From Chloroflexota bacterium (GTDB taxonomy: Bacteria > Chloroflexota > Anaerolineae > Anaerolineales > Villigracilaceae): a stretch of DNA of 64,000 nt. Positions within the stretch are counted from its first letter, which is position 1, and each line of letters opens with the position of its first letter. A model generated the notes under the pieces. It was not told where the DNA came from and made no database searches. It saw only the letters and a program-made list of their open reading frames with translations. Location of the stretch: positions 83,272-147,271 of the forward strand of contig JABRVZ010000003.1 of NCBI GenBank assembly GCA_039961775.1, read 5' to 3'. The position numbers were made by a program, and so were the translations under genes. This document shows positions 3,473-47,770 of the stretch, piece by piece.

Positions 3473-4014
3473 GTCAACTCTTTTCTCAGTAACCTGTACA
3501 AACTTCTCAAGGCGCGGTGTTGAATGGATTTGACCGCGCCGACGGGCTTTCTCAACGCCCTGGCAATCTCTTCATTGCTCCACGCCTCCAAATACTTGAG
3601 TGCGATGACCTGTTGCTGATCGGGCGTCAGGCGTCGGATCGCCTCGCGAACTTCCCGTTTGCGGATACGTTCTTCCGCTTCCTCCTCAGGGAGATTTGCC
3701 TCGCTTCGAAGATCATCGTCCAACGCTGACGTGTTTTCCTGCCGTCGGTACGAATCCACGATCAGGTTGTGGGCAATGCGGTAGAGAAACGCCTGAAGAT
3801 TCTCCTGTGGACCGCGCCGTTCCTGCAAGGATTTGAGAAAACGGGCAAAGGTTTCAGCCACGCAATCCTCTGCCAGCGCCTCGTCGCCGAGCAGGCGCAT
3901 GGCATAGCGATAAATCCCCGGGCTGTAGGTATCGTAAATTTCTGCCAGGGCTTGGGTTTCCAACCATGAGGCGCGCTGCAGGAGGCTTTGTTCATCAGAC
4001 ACTGTTTTGCTCAT
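3469..4014 (-). CDS. ECF-family RNA polymerase sigma factor
   Basis: 181 aa. Region 2 (AEDCVAETF..FL; FLYRIAHNLIVD) and region 4 (LTPDQQQVIALKY..SNEEIARAL..PVGAVKS). Confidence 0.93.
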   Translation of the reverse strand: MSKTVSDEQSLLQRASWLETQALAEIYDTYSPGIYRYAMRLLGDEALAEDCVAETFARFLKSLQERRGPQENLQAFLYRIAHNLIVDSYRRQENTSALDDDLRSEANLPEEEAEERIRKREVREAIRRLTPDQQQVIALKYLEAWSNEEIARALRKPVGAVKSIQHRALRSLYRLLRKELT

Positions 4015-4180
4015 CTTTTTTGACGCAAAACAAGCCTATCAGATACTGCCTGATCGCAGGTGAAGAAATTTTGAAGGCGGGGGGATTGAGGATAAAAATC
4101 AGGGGAGGAACATGCCGTTTGGCAGAATCAAGCCCACGTCCAGGGGAAGACGCGGGCTGATTTTCCGAGACGGGGCGTGG

Positions 4181-5464
4181 TTAGTCGGTTGTGCCGGCCA
4201 GGGCGGCGGTCGTCTTGTGGTTGGTCTCGATGTTCATGATGGCAGGGACAAAGAATGCCGCCAGTGTCATCAGGATGCAGACCGTCCCGCCAAGGATGTA
4301 CCAGAAGCGGATGCCCAGCGCGTCGGCGACGGGACCCGCAATCAGCAGGCTGAGCGGCATCATGGCGGTGGCGCCAGCCCCCAGCAGGGAGAAGACGCGC
4401 CCCTGCACATCCGAATCAACGGTGGATTGCATGATTGCCATCAGGGGACCGTTAGCGAAGACTTGCGCAAAGCCCAGCAGAAATTGCGCGGCAAGCAGGA
4501 AGTAGAACATGTCCGCAGGGATGAGACCCGTGAGGATAACGCCCACGCCGATGCCGATGATGCCGCTGAAGGAGGTGACGATGCGGCGTTTGAACCCGCC
4601 CCAAACCCCAAGCAGCAGTCCGCCGGCGATCACGCCGACACCGAACAGCGATTCGGTCCAGCCCAATTCTGCCGCGCCTCCGTTGAAGACCTTTGTTACG
4701 ACCAGCGGGAGCAGGGACGAGGCAGGCACAATCATGAAGTTGAGCAGCATGGCGAGAATGATGAGACCGAGCAGCCCCTTCCAGCGGACAACGTAAGTGA
4801 ACCCCTCCCGCAGGTCATGCAGGTAGGACGTCCTGGCAATTTCGCCGCTGGCTTGCAAGGCATGACGCGCCGGCTGGGGGATGGGGATGAAGAACAAAGG
4901 CACGATGGCAAGGAGCGCCGTGCCTACGTCAATCAACAGGACGTTTTGCGTGGAGAGGAGTTCGATGAGCAGAGCGCCGAGCGGAGGGGCGAAGATGTTG
5001 AGCAAGCCTTGCAGGGTTTGGTTGGCGCCGGCGACGCGCGCAAGATGCTTGTCTGGCACCATGAGGGAGGTGGAGGCGGTCATGGCGGGACCGTGAAACG
5101 CTCCGCCCAACGAACGGACCGCCATCAATGCAAAGACATGCCAGGGTTGTATGTGTCCTGCGGCGAACAGGGAAAACAGGACGAGTGTGGCAAGCGCAAT
5201 GGACGTATCCGCAGCGATCATGATGACCCGGCGGTTCCAGCGATCAACCAGCGCGCCCACGAACGGACCGAGGACAATTTGCGGCAGCAACGCCACCAGC
5301 GAGGCGGTCGCCAGCACGGTTGCGGAGCCGGTTTCGCGGGTCAGCCACCAGACAAGGGCAAACTGCACGAGCGCCGAGCCGAACAACGAGATGGCTTGAC
5401 CGGTCCAGATGGTGAAAAAGCGGGCAGCCCAGTTTTCGGGGAGGGGTTGAGATGGATTTTGCAT
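4181..5464 (-). CDS. MFS transporter, DHA3/MefA-like efflux family
   Basis: About 12 hydrophobic segments. N-terminus FFTIWTGQAISLFGS resembles MefA. Motif A GALVDRWNRR. Confidence 0.88.
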   Translation of the reverse strand: MQNPSQPLPENWAARFFTIWTGQAISLFGSALVQFALVWWLTRETGSATVLATASLVALLPQIVLGPFVGALVDRWNRRVIMIAADTSIALATLVLFSLFAAGHIQPWHVFALMAVRSLGGAFHGPAMTASTSLMVPDKHLARVAGANQTLQGLLNIFAPPLGALLIELLSTQNVLLIDVGTALLAIVPLFFIPIPQPARHALQASGEIARTSYLHDLREGFTYVVRWKGLLGLIILAMLLNFMIVPASSLLPLVVTKVFNGGAAELGWTESLFGVGVIAGGLLLGVWGGFKRRIVTSFSGIIGIGVGVILTGLIPADMFYFLLAAQFLLGFAQVFANGPLMAIMQSTVDSDVQGRVFSLLGAGATAMMPLSLLIAGPVADALGIRFWYILGGTVCILMTLAAFFVPAIMNIETNHKTTAALAGTTD

Positions 5465-19490: not shown

Positions 19491-20726
19491 ATGGACAAAA
19501 TTGTCATTACAGGCATGGGGACGGTCAATCCGCTGGGGTTGACGGTGGAAGAGAGCTGGCGGAATGCGGTCAATGGCGTTTCGGGGGTGGGACGGATTAC
19601 GCATTTCGACCCGTCGGCGCTCAACGTGCACATTGCGGCGGAGGTGAAAAATTTTGCGCCCGAAAATTATATGGATGCAAAAGAGGCGCGCCGCCGCGAT
19701 CGTTTTGAACAGTTGGCGATTGCCGCGGCAAAGGATGCCATTGCCAGTTCGGGGCTGGAGATTACTGAGGAAAACTCCGGGCGGATCGGCGTGCTGGTTT
19801 CTTCGGCAATTGGCGGAATCAAGTCGTTGAGCGATGCGGTGATCACCAATTACACCGAGGGTCCGCGCCGCGTCAGCCCGTTTCTCATTCCTATGCTGAT
19901 GCCGAACGGCGCTTCGGGCATGATTGCGATTGATTTTCAAATCAAGGGTCCGTGCTTTTCTGTGGCTTCGGCGTGCGCTTCGGGCGCGGATGGGATTGGC
20001 ACGGCGTTCCTGATGTTGAAGGCAGGGATGATTGACGCCGCTTTGGCTGGCGCCACAGAGGCAACGATTTGCCCGGTGGGAGTGGCGGCGTTCGACCGCG
20101 TGGGGGCGATGTCGCGCCGCAACGATGATTTTTCGATGACGCCCCAGCCTTTCGATAAGAACCGCGATGGGCTGGTGATGGGGGAGGGTGCGGCTGTGCT
20201 GGTGCTGGAGCGCGAGTCGCACGCGCGGAAACGCGGCGCGAACATTCTGGCGGAACTGGCAGGCTATGGCGCGACCGCCGACGCGTTCCACGTCACTGCG
20301 CCGCATGAGACCGGCGCAGGCGGCGCGGCGGCAATGCGCATGGCGCTCGAGTCGGCGGGCGCAAACGACGACGAGTTAGGGTACATCAACGCGCACGGAA
20401 CCGGGACGCCGCTGAACGACCAGTCGGAGACGCGGGCAGTCAAAGCGGCGTTTGGCGAGCGGGCATATCAAATTCCGATTTCGTCCACCAAGTCCATGAC
20501 CGGGCATATGATGGGGGCAACCGGTGCGCTGGAAGCCATCTTCTGCGTACAGGCGGTGCGGGAGGGCGTTCTGCCCCCGACCATCCATTACCAAACGCCC
20601 GATCCCGAATGTGACCTGGACTACATTCCCAATCAGGCGCGCGAGAAGAAGATTACGCTGGCAATCAGCAACGCCTTCGGTTTTGGCGGTCACAATGCCG
20701 TGTTGGCGATACGGAAATATTCGTAG
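19491..20726 (+). CDS. fabF: 3-oxoacyl-ACP synthase II
   Basis: ASACASG (Cys), NAHGTGT and KSMTGH (His pair), SNAFGFGGHN. Confidence 0.95.
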   Translation: MDKIVITGMGTVNPLGLTVEESWRNAVNGVSGVGRITHFDPSALNVHIAAEVKNFAPENYMDAKEARRRDRFEQLAIAAAKDAIASSGLEITEENSGRIGVLVSSAIGGIKSLSDAVITNYTEGPRRVSPFLIPMLMPNGASGMIAIDFQIKGPCFSVASACASGADGIGTAFLMLKAGMIDAALAGATEATICPVGVAAFDRVGAMSRRNDDFSMTPQPFDKNRDGLVMGEGAAVLVLERESHARKRGANILAELAGYGATADAFHVTAPHETGAGGAAAMRMALESAGANDDELGYINAHGTGTPLNDQSETRAVKAAFGERAYQIPISSTKSMTGHMMGATGALEAIFCVQAVREGVLPPTIHYQTPDPECDLDYIPNQAREKKITLAISNAFGFGGHNAVLAIRKYS

Positions 20727-34745: not shown

Positions 34746-36422
34746 TCACTTGATCAAGGCGCGGACTTCTTCGAGAAATTCGTCGTTCAGAAAATCACCC
34801 TTGAGCATCAGGGACTGGATTTGCCCCTGCAGGCGGCTTTTCTCGTCCACAGTCAGTTCCTTGGCGGTGGCGACGATAACGGGGATGTTGGCTGTCTCCG
34901 GCTGACTGCGCAGTATATCCATGACGGTGAAGCCGTCCATTTCGGGCATCATCAAGTCGAGAATGAGAAGATCGGGGCGTTCGCGGTTGACCAGTTCGAT
35001 GGTTTCGCGCCCGTTGACGGCTTCGAAGATTTCAAAATCACCCTGCGACTGCAAAATTCGGCGGATGAGGCGGCGCGCCTCGGCGGTGTCATCTGCCACC
35101 ACCACGCGCGGGAAGCGGTTCGGCGTCACATTGTTGAGGGCGGAGAGCAGCCCCTCTTGCGGGGTCTCCGCTTCTACCTGTTTATGGCGCAGGTCAATAT
35201 CGCGTGTCCAACCTTCGCCGAACAGATATTGCTCGGCGGGCATGGTGTGACCGGTGCAATTCACCACTACTACATCATCCGGCTTGATTATGCCGGCGCG
35301 CACCAGTTTGAAAAGCCCGGCAAAGGCAGTCGCAGAGGCGGGTTCAGCGGAGATGCCCTCCATCTTTGCCAGCACGTGCATCGCGCGAAAGGATTCTTCA
35401 TCCGAAACGCTCTCGAAGACCCCGCCAGTTTCATTGACCTGTTTGCGCAGCATGACGTAGGTGCGCCCAGGGTCGCCGGTTGCCAGCGTTTCGATGCGCG
35501 TTTTGGGCGAGCGCACCGGCTCGGCTTTTTCGAGCCCTTTGCGCCAACTCTCCACCATCGGCGCACAGCCATCCACCTGAATTGGGGCGATGGCAGGGAT
35601 GCGGTCAATCAGCCCCAGCGCCTTCAACTCACGGAAGCCCTTGTACACGCCGAGCGGTCCCAGCCCTCCGCTGATGGATTGCACATACCAGTCGGGCGTG
35701 CGCCATTTCGGACGGTCTTCTGTGGACTCTGGCGGAGCGCCGTTTTGCAGGGTCAACTGTTCGGCAATTTCGAACGCCAGCGTTTTCATTGCCTCCACCG
35801 CTGTGACCGTGCGTGCGCCCATGTCCTGATACAAACCACGCTGGCGGGCAAACTCTGCCGCCATGATTTTCGCCTCATCGTAGGAGCCGGTGATTTTGAC
35901 CACCTGACTGCCATACAGGGCGATCTCGCGCATCTTGACCCCCGGAACGAGGCTGGTGACGAACGCCCAAAGTTTGATCCCCGCCCGAGCCGCATACGCC
36001 GACAGCGAGATAGCGACATTGCCTGTGGAGGCGGCAACCATTTCAGTGATGCCCGCTTCCTTGAGCGCGGCAATCGTCAGCGCCGCCTGCCGGTCCTTGA
36101 AGGAGGAGGTGGGTCCCTGGCGCTCGTCCTTGATGTAGAGATTGTTCAGCCCCAGCATCATTCCCAGATTGACGGCTTTGATGAGCGGCGTGCCGCCCTC
36201 GCCAAGCCGCAGGCTGGGATTGGGGTTGTGAATGGGCAGGAGTTCCTTGTAACGCCACAAATCGAACTCACGGTTTTTCAGTTGTGACGGAAAGGTTTTT
36301 GCCACCTCCGCCATGTCGTATTCGGCTTCGCGCCACTGACTGGAGCAATTGGGGCATTGCATGGAACTGGGCGTGAAGGGAGCGGCATGCCCGCAATCGA
36401 GACAACGAATGACAAATGACAT
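34746..36422 (-). CDS. Threonine-synthase-like PLP enzyme (N-terminal Zn ribbon) fused to a C-terminal receiver domain
   Basis: CLDC...CPNC, LGEGGTPL, SFKDR (PLP Lys), ASTGN, EPASA. C-terminal VVADD...LILDLMMPEMDG...TAK...KG. Confidence 0.88.
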   Translation of the reverse strand: MSFVIRCLDCGHAAPFTPSSMQCPNCSSQWREAEYDMAEVAKTFPSQLKNREFDLWRYKELLPIHNPNPSLRLGEGGTPLIKAVNLGMMLGLNNLYIKDERQGPTSSFKDRQAALTIAALKEAGITEMVAASTGNVAISLSAYAARAGIKLWAFVTSLVPGVKMREIALYGSQVVKITGSYDEAKIMAAEFARQRGLYQDMGARTVTAVEAMKTLAFEIAEQLTLQNGAPPESTEDRPKWRTPDWYVQSISGGLGPLGVYKGFRELKALGLIDRIPAIAPIQVDGCAPMVESWRKGLEKAEPVRSPKTRIETLATGDPGRTYVMLRKQVNETGGVFESVSDEESFRAMHVLAKMEGISAEPASATAFAGLFKLVRAGIIKPDDVVVVNCTGHTMPAEQYLFGEGWTRDIDLRHKQVEAETPQEGLLSALNNVTPNRFPRVVVADDTAEARRLIRRILQSQGDFEIFEAVNGRETIELVNRERPDLLILDLMMPEMDGFTVMDILRSQPETANIPVIVATAKELTVDEKSRLQGQIQSLMLKGDFLNDEFLEEVRALIK

Positions 36423-36497: not shown

Positions 36498-39400
36498 TTA
36501 ACCGCCAATTCGTTTGAGTGCGTTTTCAATGCTGGCAATCAAATCGTTTTCGGTGAGCGATCCCTTGGCAATGAGCCTTTTGCCGTACTCGGCAAGTTGT
36601 TTGTGCTGTTCGTTGGTGAGCCCGCCGCCGCTGACCACCAGTACCGGTATCTCGCGGAGCGCCGGTTCTTCCATCATTTTTTCGAGAATCATGAAGCCAT
36701 TCATCTCCGGCATGAAGATGTCAAGAATGACGGCGTCTGGCGGATTGGTGTTGAGGATTTCCCAGCCGCGGCGTCCGCCTTCGGCAAGAACTGGTTGATA
36801 TTTGCCGTGTTCGGTCAGGATTTTTTCGATGAGGCGTAAGTCGTTGGGGTCGTCATCAACGACCAGCACGCGGCGGATTTTGTCGTTTTTGTCGAGGCGT
36901 TCCAGCGCATGGACAAGGTCTTCTTCGAGAATGGGTTTGACCAGGTAGTCTGCCGCGCCGAGGGTGAAGCCCTTGTCGGTTTGTTCGACGATGGAACAGA
37001 TGATGATGGGCACGTCTCGCGTGGCAGGATCAGATTTGAGGTCGGTCAGAACCGACCAGCCATCCACGTTGGGCATCATGATGTCGAGGGTCACGGCAAA
37101 GGGGTTGATTTCCTTCACTTGTTCCTTTGCCCTGGCAGGTTCGGTCAGAGCGACGACGTGGTATCCCTGCGGCGTGAGGTAGCGTTCGTAGAGACTGATG
37201 ACCTGCGGGTCGTCGTCAATGGCAAGCACAATTTTTTTGCCCGCCGGAATTTCCCCGGCTGGCTGGCGGAAGAGCGGCATGGTGAACCAGAAGGTGGAGC
37301 CTTTGCCCTCCTCACTTTCGACGCCGATGCGCCCCCCATGGAGTTGAACGAGGTTGGCGCAAATGGAGAGACCCAGTCCCGAGCCGCCCGTCTTGCGGGT
37401 GGCGGAGCCATCCACCTGCGAGAACGCCTTGAATAGTTTTTCCTGACCTTCCGACGATATGCCGGGACCGGTGTCGATCACTTTGATGAGCGCCTCGAAT
37501 TTTCCGTTTGGCGCTTTTTGCACGGAGGTCTCGACGGTGATGAAGCCCTCGTCGGTGAATTTGGCGGCGTTGGAAATCAGGTTGAGCAAAATCTGACGCA
37601 CACGCATCGTGTCGCCGCGGACAGTGGGCATTTCCGGCGGAACCTTTTCGATGAGTTGGATGGGCTTTTCCTTGACAAGTCCTTTCGCCGTGGAGAAGAC
37701 GCTGTGAATCATCTCGGCGAGGTGAACTTCCTCGAAGTTGAGTTCCATCTTGCCGGCTTCGATGCGTGCCAGGTCGAGGATGTCGTTGATGAGTCCGAGC
37801 AGGTGCTGACCCGAATTGTAGATGGCGGTGAGGTCCTGCTGCTGCATGTCGGTGATGGGACCATCTATGCCCTTCAGGATGACGCGCGAGAAGCCGATGA
37901 TGGAGTTCAGCGGGGTGCGCAGTTCGTGGCTCATGTTGGCGAGGAACTGACTCTTGAGTTTGTCCACTTCCTGGAGGTTCTTGATGAGTTCCTGCGATTC
38001 AAGGTACAGGGTGGCGTTGTTGATGGCAACGGCAACCTGGTCTGCCAGAGATTGAAGGATGGAAAGCGCATCGGTGGTGAAGGCGTGCGGCTGGGTAGAT
38101 TGAATGTCAATCACGCCGAGCGCCTTGCCGCTGACCTTGAGCGGAATGGCGACCTCTGATTGCGTGTCGAGCAGGAGCGGGTTGGGCTGGTACAGGCGGT
38201 CGGTGGCGGTGTCGTTGACAATGACGGTGTCACCTTTTTCCGCCGCTTTGCCTACGATGGTTTGCGAGCCGACGGGGACCCTGTATCGTTGGGCTTTCAT
38301 TTTTTCGCCGGCGCCGCCTGTCGCTTCGCGCAGGATGACATGGTAGCCGTCTTCGTCCATCTGATAGATGGCGGCGAAGTAGAAGCCTAGGCGGTCGCTG
38401 ACCAGATTGACGGTCTGTGCGAAGATCGTGTTGAGGTCGAGCGTGGAGGTGACGAGCCGCCCGATTTCGGCGGAAGCGGCAAGGTAGATGTTGCGCCGCT
38501 CCAGGGCTTCTCGGGCTTCCAGGCGTTCCAGCGCGGCGGATGTTTGAGCGGCGATTGCCTCGAGGATTTCTTCGTGCTTTTCTGTGAGGCGTATGGCAGG
38601 GTTATAGGTCTGAACCGCCATGACGCCTCGTACCGCGCCGCGGCTTTTCATCGGCACCCCAAGCCAGTCCACGCTGGGAGCGCCGTCGGAGACAATTTCG
38701 CCGCTGGCTTCGAGGTCGGCAAAGATTTCCGGAGTGACGCGCAGGCGTTTACCGGAACGGATGACATAAGAGGTGAGCCCGCGCCCCAGTTTGCGAGGCG
38801 CCCAGTCGTCGTCGTATTCATCCGCGTGATAAGGGAAGGTAATCTGTTGAATCTCCGGGTCGTAGAGCGCCACGAAGAAGTTTTTGGCTGGCAGAAGTGG
38901 TTGAACGGATTCGTGTACGGTGCGGAGTAATTCTTCTGCTGATTGAGCCGTCAGAGCGCTCTCGGTGATGTGCGTGATGGCGTCCTGGGTGAGTTCGTTG
39001 ATCTTACGGTCGGTGATGTCGTGCGCCACCCAAAAGACCTCGGTTTCGCTCAACTTGGAGACGTTGGCGTCGAACCAGAAGCGGCTGCCTTGAATTTCCA
39101 ACGGATATTCGATGCGCACAATTTCATCGCTATTCAACGCATCGAGGATGGCTTTCATAACCGGTTCGCAAAGGTCCGGCGGCAGGACATCGCGGATGTT
39201 TTTTCCCACCATTTCGTCGGGGGGGCGAACCAGCAGGGAGGGGTTGGTGGGTGCGATGCGGACGTAGGTGCCATCCTTGTCGTACACGATAATGACGTCA
39301 TTCATGGCGGCGAACAACGCCCGCAGTTCTGCCTCGGAGCGCTTGGTCTCCTGGAATAGACGGGCGTTTTCGAGCGCCAGCGTCAGTTGGTCGGTCACCT

Positions 39401-39716
39401 GACGGGCGAGCAGTTGGTCTTCCTCCGTCCAGACACGCTGATTGGTTTCATCAACAACCTGCAGGGTCGCCCAGGTATCGGTGCTCAGTTTGAAATCCAG
39501 CGCCAGGGCGGTTTCCGTGAGGGGTGCCGCTTTGGCGCGGCGAACAATGCCGGGGTGTTTTGCTGCCGGCAGTTCCTTGCCCGATACCGCTGCAGGCGGC
39601 TGGGACGCGCCGGCAGGAGCAACCGCCTGAGGTTCGACGCTCGGTTCTTCGTGCTTGATGTCTTCGAATAGTTTGTCAAGCCGCCTGTCGAGCGGTTTCT
39701 TCTTTGGCATATTCAA
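36498..39716 (-). CDS. Hybrid histidine kinase: basic peptide / half-GAF / PAS / GAF / GAF / HisKA / HATPase / REC / REC
   Basis: ANMSHELRTPLN, NLISNAAKFT, DTGPGI, GGSGLGL. Two receivers (TLDIMMP; ILDIFMP). Start may be at 39710. Confidence 0.93.
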   Translation of the reverse strand: MNMPKKKPLDRRLDKLFEDIKHEEPSVEPQAVAPAGASQPPAAVSGKELPAAKHPGIVRRAKAAPLTETALALDFKLSTDTWATLQVVDETNQRVWTEEDQLLARQVTDQLTLALENARLFQETKRSEAELRALFAAMNDVIIVYDKDGTYVRIAPTNPSLLVRPPDEMVGKNIRDVLPPDLCEPVMKAILDALNSDEIVRIEYPLEIQGSRFWFDANVSKLSETEVFWVAHDITDRKINELTQDAITHITESALTAQSAEELLRTVHESVQPLLPAKNFFVALYDPEIQQITFPYHADEYDDDWAPRKLGRGLTSYVIRSGKRLRVTPEIFADLEASGEIVSDGAPSVDWLGVPMKSRGAVRGVMAVQTYNPAIRLTEKHEEILEAIAAQTSAALERLEAREALERRNIYLAASAEIGRLVTSTLDLNTIFAQTVNLVSDRLGFYFAAIYQMDEDGYHVILREATGGAGEKMKAQRYRVPVGSQTIVGKAAEKGDTVIVNDTATDRLYQPNPLLLDTQSEVAIPLKVSGKALGVIDIQSTQPHAFTTDALSILQSLADQVAVAINNATLYLESQELIKNLQEVDKLKSQFLANMSHELRTPLNSIIGFSRVILKGIDGPITDMQQQDLTAIYNSGQHLLGLINDILDLARIEAGKMELNFEEVHLAEMIHSVFSTAKGLVKEKPIQLIEKVPPEMPTVRGDTMRVRQILLNLISNAAKFTDEGFITVETSVQKAPNGKFEALIKVIDTGPGISSEGQEKLFKAFSQVDGSATRKTGGSGLGLSICANLVQLHGGRIGVESEEGKGSTFWFTMPLFRQPAGEIPAGKKIVLAIDDDPQVISLYERYLTPQGYHVVALTEPARAKEQVKEINPFAVTLDIMMPNVDGWSVLTDLKSDPATRDVPIIICSIVEQTDKGFTLGAADYLVKPILEEDLVHALERLDKNDKIRRVLVVDDDPNDLRLIEKILTEHGKYQPVLAEGGRRGWEILNTNPPDAVILDIFMPEMNGFMILEKMMEEPALREIPVLVVSGGGLTNEQHKQLAEYGKRLIAKGSLTENDLIASIENALKRIGG

Positions 39717-40461
39717 TCAACTCCTGAGCGAGGACACGATATTGCTGCGAGCCGCGGCTGGTGGGTTTGTAGTGAATGATGGGCACGCCGGCGATCGGGC
39801 TTTCCCTGAGTTTGGTGTCAATTTCGATGACGGTGGTAAAAACGCCCTGCCCAAAGGTGGCTTGCAGCTGCTCGAAGATATTGCGGTGTGTGCGGTTGCG
39901 GCGGTCGAGGAGGGTGACCAGAATACGGTAGGCAAGCGCAGGATTGACTTCCTGACGGATGCGGCGGATGGTCCCCATCATGTTGCGCAGCGCGTAGGCG
40001 GAGAAGTATTCTGCCTGGGTGGGGATGATGAGCAGGTTTGCAGCGGCGAGCGCGTTGAGGGTGATCGCTCCGAGGGCGGGCGGGCAGTCGAACAGGATGT
40101 AGTCGTAGGGAAGCGGTTCAGCCGCCAGTGCGTCGCGGAGTGTGGTCAGGTAATGATTTCGCATGGGCAGGAATTGCTCCGCATTTTCGATGCGAAAACT
40201 GGACGGCACCAGGGAAAGGTTACGAATTTCGGTGGCGCGGACGGCGGTTTTAAGGGGCGCGCCTTCAATCAGCACGTTTGCCGAGGTGATGCTTGTCTCG
40301 TCGGTTTCCAAACCAAGGGCGAGCGAAAGGTTCGCCTGCGGGTCGAGGTCCACCAGCAGGACGCGGTAATTCAGTTCGGCAAGCGCCGCGCCCAGCGAAA
40401 GCGTGGAGGTGGTTTTGGCGACGCCTCCCTTTTCGTTCGACATTGCGATTGCGTATGCCAT
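39676..40461 (-). CDS. ParA/Soj-family ATPase (orphan, no adjacent parB)
   Basis: KGGVAKTT deviant Walker A, DLDPQAN, DCPP, LIIPTQAEY. Confidence 0.92.
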   Translation of the reverse strand: MAYAIAMSNEKGGVAKTTSTLSLGAALAELNYRVLLVDLDPQANLSLALGLETDETSITSANVLIEGAPLKTAVRATEIRNLSLVPSSFRIENAEQFLPMRNHYLTTLRDALAAEPLPYDYILFDCPPALGAITLNALAAANLLIIPTQAEYFSAYALRNMMGTIRRIRQEVNPALAYRILVTLLDRRNRTHRNIFEQLQATFGQGVFTTVIEIDTKLRESPIAGVPIIHYKPTSRGSQQYRVLAQELIEYAKEETARQAA

Positions 40462-40462
40462 C

Positions 40463-42976
40463 TTACTTGTCCTTTCCGTCCGAAGCCTTGGGCAGGATTT
40501 CCACACGGGTGGCGCCAAGCGCCTGACGCAGTTCCTGCAGGGCGGTTTCGATCATGGCTTGCGGGTCGTTATGGTTGCGTATCTTGCCGGTGATTTCCGA
40601 GACCAGCCGTTCGCGTTCGGCGCGGCGGGTTGTTTCTTCGAACAGGCGGGCGTTTTCTGCGGAGAGCGCCACGCGTTCCGCCACCGCCTGAATGAGGTCT
40701 TTTTCGTCCTCACCCCATTGGGATGCGGATGCAGATTGGACGACCAGCCTGCCGATGACTTCGCCGCGCAGTTCGATCGGGACGACAATCGAGGTTGTTT
40801 CAGCCTTCTCAGCCTTTTTCTTGTCTGGAAGCGGCATGTCCAACTTGATGGGCTCGGTGAGGGGCACTGCCCCCATGGTATTGTAGCGGTAGCCGAGCAG
40901 TTTTTGGCTGTGCGGCAAACGTTTCCATGCTTCGCGAGTGGACTGGCGCATGAGTGTTTGCAGTTCTTCAAGCGCGCGGTTGGAAGCATCGAACAGACGC
41001 GCATTTTCGATGGCGAGGCTTACCTGTTCGGCGAGCAGACTGAGCGTTTGCACGTCTTCTTCGGTGAAGGCGCCGACTTCCGTGCTTTGCACGTCGAGCG
41101 CGCCGATGACTTTGCCGCCGCTGAAGAGGGGCAGCGCCATTTCGGAGTGGGTGTCGGGGAGGTCGGGGTTGTTGAAGTAGACGGCATCCACCCCGACGTC
41201 GAGGGCGATGCGCGGTTTTCCGCTTCCCGTCACGCTGCCGACGATGCCTTGTTCGCCTACTTTCAGGCGGTGTCGCCTTGCCAGCATTCTCTGACCGCCT
41301 TCGCTGTTAGCCGCGGCAAGTACGGCGTATTCGTTGTTTTCATCGAGCAGGAAGATGCCGACATGGTAAAAGCCGTACTTTTCGCTGATGACCGACGTCA
41401 CGTGCGGGAGGAGTTCCTTGGGGTCGCGGATGGAAGCGATGGATTGGGCGACCTGCGCCATTGCCTCGAATTGTGCCGCGCGGCGGTGAAGTTGGGCGTT
41501 TGCCGCTTCCAGCTCACGTCCGCGTTGTTCGACTTCCCGGGTGCGTTCGGCGACGCGCATTTCGAGCGAGTCGATGGATGTCTTGAGTTCCGCCGCCATG
41601 GCGTTGAGGGTGGAGGCAAGGGTGCCGATTTCGTTTTGCTCGGTGATGGCTGCGCGCGCTTCCAGGTTACCTTTTGCCATTTCTTCGGCGGTACGGGTGA
41701 GCGAAAGCAGAGGGGCTATCAGGCTGTTGCTGAAATTGCGGGTGGCGAGCAGGGTGAGCCCGAAGATGCCCAGAACGACGAAGAGACTGATGCCCAGCGC
41801 ATTGCGGCTTTCGCGTTCGAGTTGTTGGCGGGCTTCCAGCGCTTTGGCGAGCATTTCATTGACCGGTACGATGATTGCCAGGCTGAAGCCCGCGCGTTGT
41901 ACCGGGCGGTAAACGACGAACCTCCTGGTGCCGTTCAGGCTGAGTTCTGTGAAGCCGCTGTTGCCGGCGGTCATTTCGGTGAGTATGGGCGCGAGTTCTC
42001 TGGCGGTGCTTCCCAGGTTGGTGGCAGTGAGTTTGCCTCCCAGCGGTAACATGTTCGGGTTGATGTTCAGATCGGCGTAGCCCGCATTGGGCATGGCAAT
42101 CAGCCGCCCGTCGCGGTCGAGCAGGAATGCGTAGCCGCTCTCTGCCACGCTGATATTACCGACGATTTCCGAGATTTTAGTTAGTTGAATATCCTGCGCA
42201 ACGACGCCAGCCAGTCTGCCTGCCGCATCGTAGACCGGCGCGCTGTTGGTGATGACAATACCGTTGAGCGCGGCGTCCAGATACGGCTCTGACCAGACCG
42301 CCCCTTTGCCAGGATTTGCTTCCGGCGCCGCCGCCGTGTACCAGGGTCTGCCGGTGACGTCGAAATCGGGAGGGACGATGGCGGCAAGGTCTATGTTGGG
42401 GTAATAGAGCGTGTACCCCGAAGAACCGCCAAAGTACACGGCGATGACATCGGGATTGGCTTCAAGGATGGAGGGGGCAATCAAGTCCATGTGGCGGATG
42501 ATGTTCAAATCCGCTTTCATTGAGTCGGAGAGGTCGGCTGCGGCAGGGATAAATACGGAGCCGATTTCTGTGTTGGGGTTATCCCAACTGCCCTTGTCGT
42601 TGCGGGAAAGCGATGTGCCGGCGTCCCAAAATGCGCCGGTTTCGAAAGACTGCCGGTTCAGCAGAAGGTTCTGGTCATATTCTCTCAACGAGAGGATGCC
42701 TGCCTCCAGCGACGCGAAAAAGTTCGATAAAGTTTCTGTCTTTCGGTCGGCTGTAATGGCAAGCAGGGTCTCGGCTTCATTACGTGTGGCGGCGTCGAGA
42801 CGTGAAATCAGGGCGGAGTTGGTCTGCCGCGTGCGGATGAATACGAAGACGCCCATGATGGCAAGCGCCAGAAACACGATGGCAATACTGCCGCGAACCA
42901 GCCTGTTGCGAATGGACGGCTGAGGCGCTGAATAGGATTGCGGAGAACCGCCGGTGGGTTTCACTGCATCTGTCAT
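40463..42976 (-). CDS. TM-dCache-TM-HAMP-GAF receptor with split-GAF tail, no catalytic domain
   Basis: FDVTGRPWY..WSEPY dCache, HAMP EIGTLA, conserved GAF, PIELRGEVIG...ENARL...RERLVSEI tail. ATGA overlap with the upstream gene. Confidence 0.85.
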   Translation of the reverse strand: MTDAVKPTGGSPQSYSAPQPSIRNRLVRGSIAIVFLALAIMGVFVFIRTRQTNSALISRLDAATRNEAETLLAITADRKTETLSNFFASLEAGILSLREYDQNLLLNRQSFETGAFWDAGTSLSRNDKGSWDNPNTEIGSVFIPAAADLSDSMKADLNIIRHMDLIAPSILEANPDVIAVYFGGSSGYTLYYPNIDLAAIVPPDFDVTGRPWYTAAAPEANPGKGAVWSEPYLDAALNGIVITNSAPVYDAAGRLAGVVAQDIQLTKISEIVGNISVAESGYAFLLDRDGRLIAMPNAGYADLNINPNMLPLGGKLTATNLGSTARELAPILTEMTAGNSGFTELSLNGTRRFVVYRPVQRAGFSLAIIVPVNEMLAKALEARQQLERESRNALGISLFVVLGIFGLTLLATRNFSNSLIAPLLSLTRTAEEMAKGNLEARAAITEQNEIGTLASTLNAMAAELKTSIDSLEMRVAERTREVEQRGRELEAANAQLHRRAAQFEAMAQVAQSIASIRDPKELLPHVTSVISEKYGFYHVGIFLLDENNEYAVLAAANSEGGQRMLARRHRLKVGEQGIVGSVTGSGKPRIALDVGVDAVYFNNPDLPDTHSEMALPLFSGGKVIGALDVQSTEVGAFTEEDVQTLSLLAEQVSLAIENARLFDASNRALEELQTLMRQSTREAWKRLPHSQKLLGYRYNTMGAVPLTEPIKLDMPLPDKKKAEKAETTSIVVPIELRGEVIGRLVVQSASASQWGEDEKDLIQAVAERVALSAENARLFEETTRRAERERLVSEITGKIRNHNDPQAMIETALQELRQALGATRVEILPKASDGKDK

Positions 42977-45834
42977 GCGATACTTTCTCCGTCTGAGTCG
43001 CCGAATTGGATGATGACTTCTGAGCCAGGCAGGGCGCGTCCCAGTTCTTCGACGGCGGTCTGCAGCACGTTGCGCATGTTGATGGATGCGCCGATTTTGG
43101 CGGAGACTTCGCCGATCTTTGCCTCTTTGGCGGCGCGGCGCTGTGATTCCAGCAGGAGGCGGGCGTTGTCGAGGGCGAGCGCCAGGCGGTCTGAAACGGC
43201 TTGAGCAAGGTTGATTTCGTCCTGATTCCAGCGGTGGTTGGGCAGAGGGGCTTTGATGTTGAGCACACCGATGGTTTGTCCGCGCAGTTTGACCGGGACG
43301 GCAATGGCTGGCTGGGAGAGGGCGTCTCCGCTGTTCACCACTACCACGCGTCCCTGTTTGAGCGCTTTGCGGATTTCCTCCGACATGACTGGTTTGGTGA
43401 GTCTCTGCCCGCCGGTGGCGGTTTGTTGGTAACCAATCCTTTCTGCCTGGCGGATAAATGCGCTCCATTCCCGACTTTGAATCTGGGCGTACAATGACTC
43501 GGCTTCTTCACGCGCCTGGCGCATTTGCCCAAAGAGACGGGCGTTTTCAATGGCAATGGCAACCTGGTCGGCGAGGATGCTGAGGGTTTGGGCGTCATTT
43601 TCGGTGAAGGCGCCGGGCTTGTCACTTTGTACATCCAGAACGCCGATGGTGTCGCCTCGATAGTTGAGGGGCAGCGCCATTTCGGAGTGGGTGTTGGGGA
43701 GGTCGGGGTTGTTGAAGAAAACGGCATCCGCTCCCACGTCGAGGGCGATGCGGGGTTGTCCGGTCTGGATGACGGTGCCTACCAGTCCTGTGCCGATTTC
43801 CAGGCGGTGCCCGCGGGCGAGCATCTTCTTTCCGCCTTCGCTGTTGGCGGCTTGTAGGATGGCAAAGCGGCGGGTCTCATCCACAAAGAAGATGCCGACA
43901 TGATAGAAGTCGAAGCGTTCGCTGATGAGGCGGGTAACGAGAGGCAGCAACACGTCGAGCCGTTGTTCGCTGGCGATGAGGCGGGAGATTTCGCTAATGG
44001 ATTGAAGGTCGTGCGCGCGCTTTTCACTGACCAGTACGGCGTTTTTCAGGTCCAGCGTTCGTTCGCTTACACGCTGTTCGAGCCCGGCAATCAGGTCGCG
44101 CAGTTGGGATGTCATGTAGTTGAAGGCGACTGCCAGCGCGCCGGTTTCGTCGCCGCTTTCGATGTTTGCCCGGATATTGGTATCGCCTTTGGCGATTTTT
44201 TCTGCCACCTGTTTGAGCTGGGTGATGGGAGCCGCAAGCACCTGGGCAAAGCCAGTTGCCGCCGCCGTTGCTGCCAGTGCAATCAGAATTGCAAACAAGG
44301 TGATGTTGCGCGTTTGAATTTGAATTGGCTGGAGCGCCTCGGTTTGATTTTGGATGGAGACGGCATGCCAGTTGAGATCTGTGATGAGGGTGCTCTTTCC
44401 ATTGAGTTGAACAACATCGGTGACGCGGGCGTGGCTTGCCAGGATGGGAATTTCATCGTGGAAGGTTTCATGGTAGGGTTCGGTGGATTCCAGGAGTTCG
44501 TTGATGTTCAGCGACGCAACGGGTTTTAGTATGGTTTCGTAGGCGCCGTCTTCCTTGAGCCGCAAGGAAATTTCCTGCCCGTTGGGGAGGTAGATGTCGG
44601 TGTGGCCGGTTTGACCGAATAAACCGGATGTCAGGGTGTTGGTGAAGATGGATATATCCAGGGTGGTGCGTAGAACGCCGATAGGCTCTGTATATCCCGG
44701 GGGCTGAATGCGAATTGCCATGATAACGCCAATTGCATTGATGCTTTCGTCGTATTCCGGTTGACCGATGTAGCCGCCTTGCTCGTAGGCAGTGCGCCAC
44801 CATGTTTCGTCTGCCTGATAGTAATCGGATGTGCTGTTCGTGATGGCGATGTTCACTCCCTGGCGGTTGGTGAGGATGATTTCGATGTGCTGGGGAAATT
44901 TTTCCTGGAATTGGCGGAGTTCCTGGCTGAGAGGGGCGTTCAGGATGTCACTCACGAGAGGGTCGGCGTAGTTGCGGGCGGCATTGGCAGAGCGCCATTG
45001 TTGGTCGCGGCGGACGATTTCTTCTTCGCTCAGGGGTTTCTGCGCGCTGGAAGATGAAGCAGTCTGAATGACAAGCGGATTCAACGCCAGCGTTTGAAGG
45101 AGGTCTCTCTCGTGCCCGAGGGTTTGACCGACTTCCAGTGCCTTTGAATTTGCCAGCGTGGAAAGTTGTCCGCTGATGATGCGCACCAACGTGGCGCGCA
45201 GGGTGTTGCTTGTGAGGGCTGCGCCAAGTCCAACCGTACCCAGCACGAGAGCGGCAAAAACGACGATCAATTTGGTGCGCAGGGTGTAATTACGGAATTG
45301 CCGTGCAGTGACATGCCCGAACAACAGAATGACCGTTAGCAATATGCCGGGCAGGAAGAAACGAATGATGGCTGGCGGAGGCAGGCGGAAGGCAGGCGGG
45401 AAGATTTCGACCATCATGGCGGCGATTCCACTGACGGTTCCCCAAATGACCGCCTGGGTGACCTGCCTGGCCGGCAGTGTTTGCCCCGCGATGACAGCGG
45501 TGAGAGCCAGGATGGAGATGCCAATGAGCAGCCCGATGCCTTGGATCAGCGCCACAGCAGCGATGAACGTGATTTGCAAAGCAATCAGGATGAGCCAAAT
45601 GGCAGAGGCGAGACGCCGCCGTCGCAACAGGAAGAGGCTGACAAGCAATGCCAGCGCCAGAAGCCAGATGTCGGCGCTCCAGGCATACAGTTGCCAGTTG
45701 CCCAATTGCAGCCCCAGCGCGAGATAGACGGATGCGGCGAGGATGGAGGCCGGCAAGCCAATCAGGATAATGCGCAGGGCGTTGCGTTCTTCGTTTGTAA
45801 AGTTGGAGTCGAAGCGGAATGGATTACTAATCAT
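42973..45834 (-). CDS. Multi-TM + Cache + HAMP + GAF receptor with split-GAF tail
   Basis: N-terminal hydrophobic helices, SDYYQADETWW Cache-type segment, HAMP DETGALA, conserved GAF and tail. Confidence 0.85.
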   Translation of the reverse strand: MISNPFRFDSNFTNEERNALRIILIGLPASILAASVYLALGLQLGNWQLYAWSADIWLLALALLVSLFLLRRRRLASAIWLILIALQITFIAAVALIQGIGLLIGISILALTAVIAGQTLPARQVTQAVIWGTVSGIAAMMVEIFPPAFRLPPPAIIRFFLPGILLTVILLFGHVTARQFRNYTLRTKLIVVFAALVLGTVGLGAALTSNTLRATLVRIISGQLSTLANSKALEVGQTLGHERDLLQTLALNPLVIQTASSSSAQKPLSEEEIVRRDQQWRSANAARNYADPLVSDILNAPLSQELRQFQEKFPQHIEIILTNRQGVNIAITNSTSDYYQADETWWRTAYEQGGYIGQPEYDESINAIGVIMAIRIQPPGYTEPIGVLRTTLDISIFTNTLTSGLFGQTGHTDIYLPNGQEISLRLKEDGAYETILKPVASLNINELLESTEPYHETFHDEIPILASHARVTDVVQLNGKSTLITDLNWHAVSIQNQTEALQPIQIQTRNITLFAILIALAATAAATGFAQVLAAPITQLKQVAEKIAKGDTNIRANIESGDETGALAVAFNYMTSQLRDLIAGLEQRVSERTLDLKNAVLVSEKRAHDLQSISEISRLIASEQRLDVLLPLVTRLISERFDFYHVGIFFVDETRRFAILQAANSEGGKKMLARGHRLEIGTGLVGTVIQTGQPRIALDVGADAVFFNNPDLPNTHSEMALPLNYRGDTIGVLDVQSDKPGAFTENDAQTLSILADQVAIAIENARLFGQMRQAREEAESLYAQIQSREWSAFIRQAERIGYQQTATGGQRLTKPVMSEEIRKALKQGRVVVVNSGDALSQPAIAVPVKLRGQTIGVLNIKAPLPNHRWNQDEINLAQAVSDRLALALDNARLLLESQRRAAKEAKIGEVSAKIGASINMRNVLQTAVEELGRALPGSEVIIQFGDSDGESIA

Positions 45835-47770
45835 TTTGGCTTCCCATCGTGTCCGCATGGAGTTGTACCAGCACTTCGGAGCCGCCCAGGGCGCGGCTGA
45901 GTTCTTCCACGGCGGTGCGCAGGATGGCGTCAATCTGGGTGGTGGCGGTGATTCTGCTGGAGATGTCGGTGGTGATGCGTTCGAGTTCTGCGCGCCGCTG
46001 GGTGGTTTTGAGCAGCAGCGAAGTTTCGAGCGCCAGTGACAGGCGTTCTGCCACGGCTTCGGCAATGTCCACTTCGTCTTCATCCCATTCGTGTTCGCCG
46101 CGGGTGTGGATGTCGAGCACGCCGATTACCTCGCCGCGCAGGCGAATGGGAACGGCAAGCGTGGCGTTTACGCCGCTTTCCGCCACTGTCTGTTTTTCGG
46201 TCAGCGCTTTGCGGTTATGAGCGTTCATCCACGGACGGGAGAGAGGCGCAACTTCATCGCCGGATGCCTTGAAGCCGATTCTTGCGCTGTCGGCTTGCAG
46301 AATGCGCCAGGCGTCCTGCAGGTAGGCGACGGATGTTCTTTGGGCTTTTTCCAGCAGTTCCTGCATGGATTCGAAGGAGCGGGCATTTTGAATTGCCACG
46401 GCAATCTGGTCGGCAAGGGTGGTCAGCACGCGGACGTCTTCCTGCTGGAAGGCGTTGGGCTGGGTGCTTTGTACATCCAGGACGCCGATGGTTTGTCTGC
46501 CGATGATGAGAGGCAGGGCAATTTCGGAGCGAGTTTCGGGGAGGTCGGGATTGTCGAAGTACACGGCATCCGCTCCCACGTCCAGGGCGATGCGGGGAGC
46601 GCCGAGGGCTGAGACGTAGCCAACGATGCCGGTCTGCCCGACCTTGAGCTTGTGTCCGCGCGCGAGCATTCTCTGTCCGCCGGGGCTGTTGGCGGCGCGC
46701 AGGACGGCGTACTCGTTGTTTTCGTCCAGGAGGAAGATGCCCACATGGTAGTATCCCATCCGCTCGCTGATGGCGGTTGTGATGCGCGGAAGCAGGCTTG
46801 GCAGGCTTTCAAGGGAGGTTGCGGCTTTGACGATTTCTGAAATGATTTCGAGCTGACCAGCGCGTTTTTCGAGCGTTTCAACGGTCTGTTGAATTTCTTC
46901 GTTTTGTACGTTCAGGCTGGCGGCTTGACGCCGAAGTTGCTCCTCGTCTGCCTGCTGAACGGCGAGCAGGTCGTTGAAACTTTCGATGACCTGGTTGAGT
47001 TCACGGATGCCGGTGTGCAGTTCCAGCCGTTTGCCTGCTTCCCGAACGCTGGAGGTGGCTTTCGCCAATTCCAACACGGGATTGGCAATTCGTGTGCCTG
47101 CCAGCCAGCCCAGCGCCGCGGCGCCTGCGGCGGACGCCAGGAACAAAAGCACAAAGGTGCGGAAAAACTCCTGTTGTTGCGCCAGGATGTCCTGTGCCAG
47201 AATATCCACGCCGACGATGCCTTCCAATTGCCCGTCGGAGCGGTAGAACGGAGCATAGGCGGTCAGGTAGGTGCCGAATTCATCGGTGTAGAACTCGGTT
47301 TCGACTGCCGGGGCGCGCAAGGTATCGAAGTTTTCAAGCAGGAACCCGCTTGGGCTTTCATAAACCGAGCCAATTTCAACCGGCTGGTACTCTTCGGGCG
47401 GTGCGCCGGGTTCGTGACCGGCGTCCAGGACGAAGTAGATTTCACCCGCTGTATTTTTGCGCATGGTGTACACGTACAGGATTTCCGGGTCGGTGGCGGC
47501 AATGGCGAAGCCTTTGGCTTGCAGTTCCCGGTAGGCGTCGGTGTCCATGTCGGCAGGGGTTTGCAGTTGCGCATGGAGGTCGCCGTTGATTTGCAGGGCG
47601 GCGTTCGCGGCAATGGCTGTCAGTTTGTGCTGCTTTTCGCGGAGCAGGTTATTGCGCGCTTGCGAGTAGGAAAGCGAAATTGTCAGCGCACTGATGAGCA
47701 CACCGGCAATGGCAAAACCAATGGCAAGACGGAAGCGCAGGCTGGTCAGCCGTTCCATTAAGGCTTTCAT
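45827..47770 (-). CDS. TM-single Cache-like-TM-HAMP-GAF receptor with split-GAF tail
   Basis: YVYTMRK..YFVLD...YTDEFGTYLTAYAP...GVD sensor, conserved GAF and tail. ATGA overlap. Confidence 0.85.
   Translation of the reverse strand: MKALMERLTSLRFRLAIGFAIAGVLISALTISLSYSQARNNLLREKQHKLTAIAANAALQINGDLHAQLQTPADMDTDAYRELQAKGFAIAATDPEILYVYTMRKNTAGEIYFVLDAGHEPGAPPEEYQPVEIGSVYESPSGFLLENFDTLRAPAVETEFYTDEFGTYLTAYAPFYRSDGQLEGIVGVDILAQDILAQQQEFFRTFVLLFLASAAGAAALGWLAGTRIANPVLELAKATSSVREAGKRLELHTGIRELNQVIESFNDLLAVQQADEEQLRRQAASLNVQNEEIQQTVETLEKRAGQLEIISEIVKAATSLESLPSLLPRITTAISERMGYYHVGIFLLDENNEYAVLRAANSPGGQRMLARGHKLKVGQTGIVGYVSALGAPRIALDVGADAVYFDNPDLPETRSEIALPLIIGRQTIGVLDVQSTQPNAFQQEDVRVLTTLADQIAVAIQNARSFESMQELLEKAQRTSVAYLQDAWRILQADSARIGFKASGDEVAPLSRPWMNAHNRKALTEKQTVAESGVNATLAVPIRLRGEVIGVLDIHTRGEHEWDEDEVDIAEAVAERLSLALETSLLLKTTQRRAELERITTDISSRITATTQIDAILRTAVEELSRALGGSEVLVQLHADTMGSQND

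Follow-up and report, generated by a model that had tools for sequence, protein, structure and literature searches.

The 64,000-nucleotide stretch of DNA analysed here (the window), from contig JABRVZ010000003.1 of the Chloroflexota assembly GCA_039961775.1, carries on its minus strand a gene for a ParA-like ATPase, P0001, which is most probably a dedicated ParA-type ATPase of a signalling gene cluster and not a chromosome-partition protein. The gene lies between a membrane sensor gene and the gene for a soluble hybrid histidine kinase, P0002, whose first 18 residues form a tag resembling the ParA-binding peptide of ParB. Sequence comparisons make it quite likely that P0001 binds this tag. Somewhat less firmly, and by analogy with known systems, we think that the two proteins probably form a private pair, in which an ATP-bound ParA dimer would bind the two tags of the kinase and distribute the kinase and its sensors by way of the nucleoid.

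The position of P0001 apart from the chromosomal partition proteins is seen in its phylogeny. In a maximum-likelihood tree, 73 extra ParAs, P0001 among them, form one clade (support of 99 in the Shimodaira-Hasegawa-like approximate likelihood ratio test, SH-aLRT) and the 21 chromosomal Soj proteins of the order form another (SH-aLRT 100). The stem branches are long, at 0.73 and 0.91, and the split persists with 168 sequences. Chromosomal Soj adjoins parB in 20 of the 21 genomes of the order, and the genome studied here, which is 98.8% complete, has a canonical soj-parB pair on another contig (C43), the Soj of which is 38% identical to P0001, as well as several more distant ParA-like paralogues. 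Neither a ParB homologue nor a parS-like site, with up to two mismatches allowed, was found in the 64-kb window. A preliminary description of this locus, made from the sequence alone, had called P0001 an orphan ParA with no parB or parS in the window, to be set against chromosomal Soj by phylogeny, and on each of these points the comparison agrees with it. A second ParB_N domain (56 bits) lies in a 402-residue open frame elsewhere in the same assembly (C53:30226-30501, minus strand, locus L002), with no listed ParA match nearby. The sole parS-like sites in the assembly, with two mismatches to TGTTTCACGTGAAACA, are at positions 20028 and 20664 of contig C113, 636 bp apart and not on the soj-parB contig.

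Orthologues of P0001 (78-98% identity) were found in 22 of the 24 genomes of the genus, each of which also has a chromosomal Soj that is 36-38% identical to it. A match at E ≤ 1e-55, the Soj level being about 1e-44, is present in 148 of the 301 genomes sampled in the order, and in the window's own family all 31 sampled genomes have a match. At E ≤ 1e-52, the genomes sampled from the class's other orders gave no match, and those sampled from other classes of the phylum gave three borderline ones. A pattern scan with one genome per species recovered members of 42-47% identity with the motif D-T-K-L-R-E in other Anaerolineae and in Chloroflexota metagenome-assembled genomes (MAGs), and the clade is therefore wider than the E ≤ 1e-52 threshold suggests. 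At E ≤ 1e-40, a cut-off lax enough to let in ordinary Soj homologues too, over 4,700 protein clusters of a metagenome collection match P0001. The public annotation of the relatives is generic, being either ParA family protein or chromosome partitioning protein.

The ParA open reading frame (ORF) extends from its ATG at 40461 to 39676 on the minus strand, on which all the features of the window described below also lie, and encodes 261 amino acids (aa) followed by a stop codon at 39678-39676. Pfam matches, the tree and an AlphaFold2 (AF2) model assign the product to the Soj-type fold and to the clade of signalling-array ParAs. The left coordinate of 39660 given earlier for the gene needs correction, as it falls 16 nucleotides (nt) past the stop codon. 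The ParA stop does lie inside the start of the kinase gene, as had been described: the kinase ATG is at 39710, which gives an overlap of 35 nt (39676-39710), and a Shine-Dalgarno AGGAG (39725-39721) is found 10 nt 5' of this ATG, within the ParA codons for QEL. On the other side, the TAA stop of the upstream dCache-HAMP-GAF sensor gene (40465-40463) is 1 nt ahead of the ParA ATG, and a Shine-Dalgarno-like AAGGA, inside the sensor gene at 40470-40474, is 8 nt 5' of that ATG. These last features come from direct reading of the sequence.

The kinase protein starts with MPKKKPLDRRLDKLF, followed by a 50-residue stretch that is 74% Pro, Ala, Glu, Lys, Ser, Gly and Gln. Alignment and AF2 divide this region into a candidate ParA-docking tag at residues 1-18, MPKKKPLDRRLDKLFEDI (39657-39710), and an unconserved Pro/Ala-rich linker at residues 19-66 (39513-39656). 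In the AF2 model residues 7-14 of the kinase are helical, after which the predicted local distance difference test (pLDDT) stays below 50, with no secondary structure, to about residue 60. When ten orthologous N-termini were aligned, R10, L11 and F15 of the tag were invariant and L14 nearly so, and the next 45-95 residues, a linker of differing length among the orthologues, could not be aligned. Conservation returned at a half-GAF hairpin and helix. This region (39336-39512, kinase residues 67-125) is modelled as a beta-hairpin at residues 68-86 and a long helix at residues 96-139 straight after the linker, which fits the last part of a GAF domain.

The likeness of the tag to ParB, proposed in the preliminary description from the kinase N-terminus, is borne out by comparison with the organism's own ParB, which starts with MPKRTGLGKGLDALIP. 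Twenty ParBs of the order share the sequence M-x-K-R-x-G-L-G-[K/R]-G-L-[D/E]-A-L-I-P. Aligned on L-[D/E]-x-L, the kinase tag and the organism's own ParB have the same residue or residue class at positions 1-4, 7, 9, 11, 12, 14 and 15. The hydrophobic residues L7, L11, L14 and F15 of the kinase are in register with L7, L11, L14 and I15 of ParB, and the kinase also shares the basic residue at position 9 and D12. In Myxococcus xanthus ParB, the equivalent L11, L15, L18 and I19 were each shown by mutagenesis and nuclear magnetic resonance to be required for ParA binding, R13 is required for stimulating the ParA ATPase, and the peptide folds into a short helix that occupies a bipartite pocket on the ParA dimer's edge (PMC12462528). 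Lys3 and Lys7 of Bacillus subtilis Spo0J and Arg9 of Helicobacter pylori ParB have an equivalent role (PMC11229316). The tags differ from ParB in that both of its invariant Gly residues are absent, the second being replaced by R, and in having Phe for Ile. The tag has no Pro cap, and its helix can run on to a further hydrophobic residue, whereas that of ParB ends at Pro.

The tag is conserved well beyond this genome. The partner, taken as the ORF starting around the ParA stop, was extracted at all 73 loci of the clade; its start overlaps the ParA stop in nearly all of them, mostly by 28-43 nt. The tag consensus is M-[S/P]-K-K-K-[K/R]-[L/I]-x-[K/N]-R-L-[E/D]-x-L-F, then x-[D/E]-[I/L/V]. A loose pattern identified the tag in 58 of the 73 partners and the core pattern, [RK][LI][DEN]x[LI]F, in 52, the core being scored in the first 45 residues of the partners and in the first 30 of the genome's ORFs. 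The partners missing the pattern mostly have variants such as SLERIEALF or IRSRIESLF. As a background, the genome has 30,156 ORFs with an ATG start and a length of at least 100 aa, of which 53 match the loose and 12 the core pattern, so that the core motif is enriched about 1,700-fold in the partners over genome ORF starts, and the sole one of the 12 with a basic run is the kinase itself. As the 73 loci are related by descent, the tag counts measure conservation and not independent occurrences. Of the ParB-like N-terminus and the Pro/Ala-rich linker noted in the preliminary description, the first is conserved beside this ParA across the order and the second is not. On contig C103 of the same assembly (minus strand, position 9262 from the end of the reverse-complemented contig), a 156-aa ORF that starts with MDILQLIDRLEELFNESKSIP has the core R-L-E-x-L-F without the basic run and is probably unrelated to the tag.

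P0001 matches the Pfam family AAA_31 with E = 3.5e-47 and also CbiA, MipZ and related models; no NCBIfam equivalog reached its cut-off, the best partial matches being archaeal MinD, ParA_partition and RepA. Its motifs, placed by the clade alignment, are a deviant Walker A, KGGVAKTT, at residues 11-18 (40408-40431), motif 2 or Walker A' with D38, D40 and N44 (40330-40350), and the Walker B Asp, D125 (40087-40089). The signature Lys K11, the Walker Lys K16, D38, D40 and D125 are invariant in all 73 clade members, and N44 is conserved in 69 of them. We therefore expect, from these invariant catalytic residues, an active and dimerising ATPase. The loop after D125 keeps L130 and G131 and has A132 where Soj has Leu (M. 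xanthus L152). Among solved structures, M. xanthus ParA (8RAY, E = 2e-49), Thermus thermophilus Soj and H. pylori Soj come closest to P0001 in sequence. The AF2 model, for which 62 homologues were used, has a pLDDT of 95.2 and superimposes on 8RAY with a template modelling (TM) score of 0.93 and a root-mean-square deviation of 1.4 Å. Foldseek gave TM scores of 0.86-0.92 to 2BEK and 6IUB, and the model fits McdA, MinD, FlhG and BcsQ less well than 8RAY.

Ala15 replaces the usual Gly of the P-loop in 70 of the 73 clade members, and the resulting KGGVAKT was considered as a marker of the clade. It was rejected: the same P-loop is found in Bacillota Soj proteins with an ordinary ParB downstream and in ParAs linked to FtsZ, and D-T-K-L-R-E is the better clade marker. 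The Bacillota examples (L165, L168, L176, L178 and L184) have ParB next door, with an N-terminus of the form ...GLG[K/R]GL.AL[I/L/M]P, and the variant is therefore compatible with function and no mark of the clade. In the FtsZ-linked group, the ParAs carrying KGGVAKT are 36-39% identical to P0001 and occur in Actinomycetota MAGs (L173, L179, L193, L197, L199, L201, L210, L211) and in Atribacterota (L171, L207). Here ParA occupies about 4001-4760 of the locus and the next gene begins at about 4743, so that the FtsZ start overlaps the ParA stop. The 393-530-aa product has the Pfam domains Tubulin and FtsZ_C, preceded by an N-terminal extension with a ParB-like peptide, e.g. M..GKRASMREGPLAALFRKT or MVDRPSMKDGLSELFRRT. 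Judging from these peptides, a ParA-type ATPase may dock directly on FtsZ at such loci; a literature search for ParA docking on FtsZ found no description of it.

The preliminary description had also stated that P0001 keeps basic residues at positions used by Soj for non-specific DNA binding. In B. subtilis Soj, R189 and R218 are such residues. Their equivalents in P0001, R188 and K217, are basic in 97% and 100% of the clade, respectively, which bears the statement out in the main. H. pylori Soj binds DNA through K199, K227, K230 and K247 (PMC6393308). The K199 position is H192 in P0001 and His in 99% of the clade, and K217 corresponds to K230, as well as to R238 of M. xanthus ParA. At the K227 position (R235 in M. 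xanthus) P0001 has I214 and the clade Val or Ile, so that a basic residue was lost here. The K247 position is variable in the clade, and R236, basic in 99% of members, lies two residues later. R190, R193, R219, R236 and R242 have no Soj equivalent and are specific to the clade, in which they are conserved at 84-100%, with R219 basic in 100%. Together these positions fall in a putative non-specific DNA-binding face at residues 186-242 (39736-39906), as placed by alignment. Neither the sequence of P0001 nor its AF2 model has a C-terminal amphipathic membrane-targeting helix of the MinD or FlhG type; the last helix, residues 236-260, ends polar and charged (...YAKEETARQAA), and this tail is variable across the clade. 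Because the basic Soj-like face is kept and no membrane-targeting helix is present, the nucleoid would most likely be the matrix.

The surface that in M. xanthus ParA receives the ParB peptide has been remodelled. It comprises the helix H4-H6 region, residues 61-99 of P0001 by alignment (40165-40281), and its helices are present in the AF2 model. The pocket residues were mapped from M. xanthus through the 8RAY alignment and a MAFFT alignment of both clades. Tyr at Y81 of M. xanthus ParA is found in all 21 Soj proteins of the order and in none of the 73 extra ParAs, which have Ala, Ser or Gly. Similarly, E117 is Glu in 21 of 21 Soj proteins and Phe or Tyr in 55 of the 73, and V116 is Val or Ile in Soj and Arg or Gln in 68 of the 73. 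The G113 position is Gly in Soj and Leu, Thr or Met in the extra clade, L152 is Leu or Ile in Soj and Ala, Pro or Ser in the extra clade, and L150, Leu in Soj, is mostly kept. P0001 itself has Y81 changed to A, E82 to N, D110 to R, V116 to Q and E117 to F. When Y81, E117, V116, L150, L152, L155, L187 and L192 were compared, the Soj-type pocket was not conserved in the clade, with only L150 largely kept, and the clade has its own pocket stretch, AE[R/Q]FLP, in place of the AEVELV of Soj. The 25 columns that discriminate the clades best include four of the 10 pocket residues and one neighbour. The enrichment is modest: of 19 residues in or next to the pocket, 5 rank in the top 25 of the 261 columns, for a hypergeometric p of 0.025, and the columns are not independent. 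The changes suggest that the peptide site of the ParA is a conserved docking site with a new specificity, which would be insulated from the chromosomal ParABS; insulation of coexisting ParA systems by differing peptide pockets has been argued before (PMC12462528).

The gene context was counted at the 46 loci with long flanks. In 44 of them the gene directly upstream of ParA encodes a GAF sensor and usually closes a run of three to five such genes. A kinase core is present in the tagged partner at 27 loci, and 34 loci have a kinase either as the partner or further downstream. The identification of the kinase as the tagged partner, which the preliminary description had made for this locus, therefore extends to 27 of the 46 and not to the others, most of which have the tag on another GAF-array protein; a small half-GAF protein or a CheW-domain protein can also carry it. 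Among these other partners are a MASE11-GAF membrane protein, multi-GAF proteins and small proteins of 128-222 aa. The small proteins (L036:2405-2791, L095:8766-9434, L105:7575-8039 and L152:4767-5159) comprise one with the second half of a GAF domain only and others without a Pfam match, with a kinase further downstream where seen, and they may be adaptors between ParA and the array.

A 307-aa CheW-domain protein with the tag forms a stand-alone pair with its ParA, and other Chloroflexota yielded two further partners with a CheW domain and this tag. In the tree the three ParAs group together (SH-aLRT 98), and 96 GAF-array ParAs have this group as their exclusive sister (SH-aLRT 97). The three pairs are at L106:7059-8830 (G249:C18), L162:1054-2629 and L164:4001-5404; their partners, of 208-307 aa, have tag and linker, and their ParAs carry the D-T-K-L-R-E motif. 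The L106 pair stands alone among metabolic genes, in a genome that also has a GAF-array copy (L096). No CheW domain or methyl-accepting chemotaxis protein (MCP) signalling domain (MCPsignal) was found in the 98.8%-complete genome studied here, and its ParA therefore serves something other than chemotaxis.

A working model can be drawn from these comparisons. The product of the adjacent gene, the hybrid histidine kinase, would be a dimer with two N-terminal tags, and the ATP-bound ParA dimer would bind both. Each tag would consist of a basic run and an amphipathic helix, L-x-[K/R/N]-R-L-[D/E]-x-L-F, on a disordered tether of about 50 residues, and would be derived from, or convergent on, the ParA-binding peptide of ParB. 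Nucleoid-bound ParA-ATP would tether the kinase together with the output-less GAF/HAMP sensors that signal through it, the tag would stimulate ATP hydrolysis and the release of ParA, and the resulting ParA gradient would spread the signalling complexes along the cell and between daughter cells. Such a working mode, as in ParC-ParP, PpfA-TlpT and McdAB, appears most likely because the Soj-like basic surface is kept and a membrane-targeting helix is missing. We infer the physical binding of tag and ParA, the stimulation of the ATPase by the tag, the binding to DNA and any spatial pattern, including the spacing or segregation of the receptor-kinase assembly along filaments that the preliminary description had suggested.

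Several observations weigh against this model or parts of it. The tagged protein is itself not a kinase in 19 of the 46 loci. The best-conserved Arg of the tag, present in 81% of partners, is one position later than the Arg of ParB, and the position of the ParB Lys/Arg is Lys or Asn in the tags, with Asn in about a third of partners. An apparent association between ParA residue 96 (R or Q) and tag position 10 (Fisher p = 0.009) was lost in a sign test on the three phylogenetically independent pairs, which gave no significance. The K227/R235-type residue, conserved in the superfamily between DNA and ATP, is replaced by Val or Ile in the clade, and DNA coupling without it may differ or be absent. 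Finally, the sensors are membrane proteins, and a nucleoid ratchet is not the simplest geometry for a membrane-tethered assembly.

The last two points bear most directly on an alternate explanation in which P0001 is a switch of assembly or activity. By analogy with FlhG/FleN and BcsQ, which act as nucleotide switches on partner proteins, an ATP-dependent ParA dimer would clamp the kinase tags and gate the activity of the kinase, its assembly with the sensors or its availability, with no gradient and no spacing. The conserved tag and the remodelled pocket support binding equally well under this explanation, the loss of the residue equivalent to H. pylori K227, which couples DNA and ATP, fits it, and membrane-bound sensors fit a nucleoid ratchet poorly. 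In addition, M. xanthus ParA requires a pair of juxtaposed peptides, and a kinase that is constitutively dimeric would provide them. However, eight basic or His positions are conserved on the Soj-type DNA face, several of them gained in the clade, the fold and sequence are closest to the nucleoid-binding Soj/ParA proteins and not to FlhG or BcsQ, and the sister clade has a ParP-like CheW partner, of a class with a known localisation role. We judge the switch fairly unlikely, though it is the main rival. Cross-talk with chromosome segregation, in which the tag would engage the chromosomal Soj, or the extra ParA would compete for ParB, so as to couple signalling to the ParABS cycle, seems to us improbable. 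The tag does keep all four hydrophobic positions of the ParB peptide and, in the genus, also a basic residue at the position of the ParB Lys/Arg, and the canonical pocket is intact in the chromosomal Soj (Y81 and E117 in 21 of 21). Against this, nearly every locus has its own dedicated ParA in translational coupling with the tagged gene, the pocket of this ParA differs from that of Soj exactly at the peptide-contacting positions, and the tag has neither of ParB's two invariant Gly residues and carries Phe for Ile, the pattern expected for insulation (PMC12462528).

A role of P0001 in DNA partition, for the chromosome or a mobile element and with an unrecognised centromere-binding partner, would be in keeping with its Soj-type fold, its retained DNA-binding Arg and Lys, and its public annotation as a chromosome partitioning protein. 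We nevertheless regard this as highly improbable. No ParB, ribbon-helix-helix gene or parS-like site was found in the window, a canonical soj-parB pair is present elsewhere in the genome, and the same signalling context recurs in 44 of the 46 loci, in many families and with no mobile-element genes. Both neighbouring genes encode signalling proteins and are translationally coupled to ParA. The idea that the ParB-like N-terminus of the kinase arose by chance or as a by-product of overlapping coding is the least credible of the alternatives. The first 11 codons of the kinase do overlap the ParA tail, so that the peptide is partly constrained in two frames. The D-x-L-F part of the tag lies past the ParA stop, though, and across the order the tag persists next to variable ParA tails; the constraint from the overlap therefore does not explain the conservation of the tag. 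The roughly 1,700-fold enrichment of the motif over genome ORF starts and its presence on CheW-type partners also speak against chance. The private ParA-kinase pair with a localisation role thus remains the reading that we prefer.

The surrounding genes complete the picture of the cluster. The kinase gene, P0002 (36498-39710; Pfam and AF2), encodes a soluble hybrid histidine kinase of 1070 aa with the domain order tag, linker, half-GAF hairpin and helix, PAS, two GAF, HisKA, HATPase_c and two REC domains. The next gene in the same direction (34746-36422; Pfam) encodes a pyridoxal phosphate (PLP)-dependent enzyme fused to a receiver domain, and this fusion is likely to be the output of the kinase. 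Upstream of ParA, the last output-less membrane sensor gene (dCache-HAMP-GAF) occupies 40463-42976, and more output-less sensor paralogues are found further upstream. The sensor ORFs span 40463-43468 and 42973-46083 of the window, and the longest ORF of the last sensor, from the first ATG at 43468, begins about 165 codons too early, with a Pro/Arg-rich stretch running over the end of the sensor gene before it. Translation probably starts at the Met of MTDAV... near 42976, and the genes of the sensor array would then be tightly coupled as well.

If the proposed pair is right, ParA/MinD ATPases would gain a new class of cargo, a two-component histidine kinase together with its set of sensors. 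In a 2024 review of these ATPases, the cargos listed are chromosomes, plasmids, carboxysomes, the divisome, flagella, chemotaxis arrays and secretion machinery, with no histidine kinase among them (PMC11407121). A literature search for a ParA with a histidine-kinase partner in Chloroflexota, for which subscription journals were mostly out of reach, found no description. The ParA-tag system is common, being present in about half of the Anaerolineales genomes sampled. With partner tags that are still ParB-like and a ParA pocket that has diverged, it would be a natural experiment on the insulation of coexisting ParA systems, and the tag, at about 18 residues, is a candidate portable tag. New here are the mapping of the M. 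xanthus pocket residues, the comparison of the DNA face, the sister relationship to the CheW-linked ParAs, the lack of chemotaxis genes in the genome and the frequency of the system across the order.

We can go further, in a tentative and rather doubtful vein, and imagine that the sensors, the tagged soluble kinase and ParA make up a new kind of organised signalling array outside chemotaxis. It would have evolved in the Anaerolineales from a system like ParC/ParP when the ParB-like tag moved from a CheW adaptor to GAF proteins, and, in long filamentous cells, its ParA would set the arrays at intervals along the nucleoids, thereby passing sensing capacity on to each cell compartment. Ca. Villigracilis is named in papers on the filamentous Chloroflexi of activated sludge; the source organism of the present sequence is known solely from MAGs.

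Four characterised systems come closest to P0001 and its partner. Chromosomal ParABS is the closest in sequence (38% identity) and fold (TM 0.93 to 8RAY), with the same catalytic motifs, basic residues at the equivalents of B. subtilis R189 and R218, and a peptide in whose hydrophobic register the tag lies. It differs in that the system described here has no parB or parS, belongs to a separate clade, has a remodelled pocket (Y81, V116, E117 and L152 changed), and has a proposed cargo that is protein and not DNA. Like the carboxysome-positioning system McdA-McdB, it would combine a nucleoid-bound ParA-type ATPase with an adjacent partner whose charged, disordered N-terminus links to a protein cargo, yet McdA is distant from P0001 (20% identity, Foldseek E 1e-17). 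The signature lysine, invariant in the P0001 clade as K11, is not known from cyanobacterial McdA. Partner proteins have been described as generally engaging ParA/MinD ATPases through a positively charged, disordered N-terminus (PMC10241942).

The other two of these systems serve chemotaxis. PpfA of Rhodobacter sphaeroides is likewise an extra ParA encoded in a signalling operon, and the N-terminus of its partner TlpT interacts with it and probably stimulates its ATPase, with the nucleoid as matrix (summarised in PMC5706961 and PMC11407121). The cargo of PpfA is, however, a cytoplasmic chemoreceptor cluster, whereas here it is not a chemotaxis cluster, the tag is on the kinase or on GAF proteins instead of a chemoreceptor, and the sensors are membrane proteins. 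In the ParC-ParP system of Vibrio, in which a ParA-like ATPase and a CheW-like adaptor localise chemotaxis arrays, as here, the ParA-like gene is immediately upstream of the partner gene, and ParP has an N-terminal ParA-interaction region, a long Pro-rich linker and an array-integrating module (PMC5706961), the same architecture as in the tagged CheW-domain partners of the three Chloroflexota sister ParAs. The differences are that the genome studied here has no CheW or MCP signalling domain and its ParA gene is not in a che operon, that ParC has a polar anchor, for which P0001 has no known counterpart, and that the partner here is a PAS-GAF hybrid histidine kinase whose receptors are output-less dCache/HAMP/GAF proteins.

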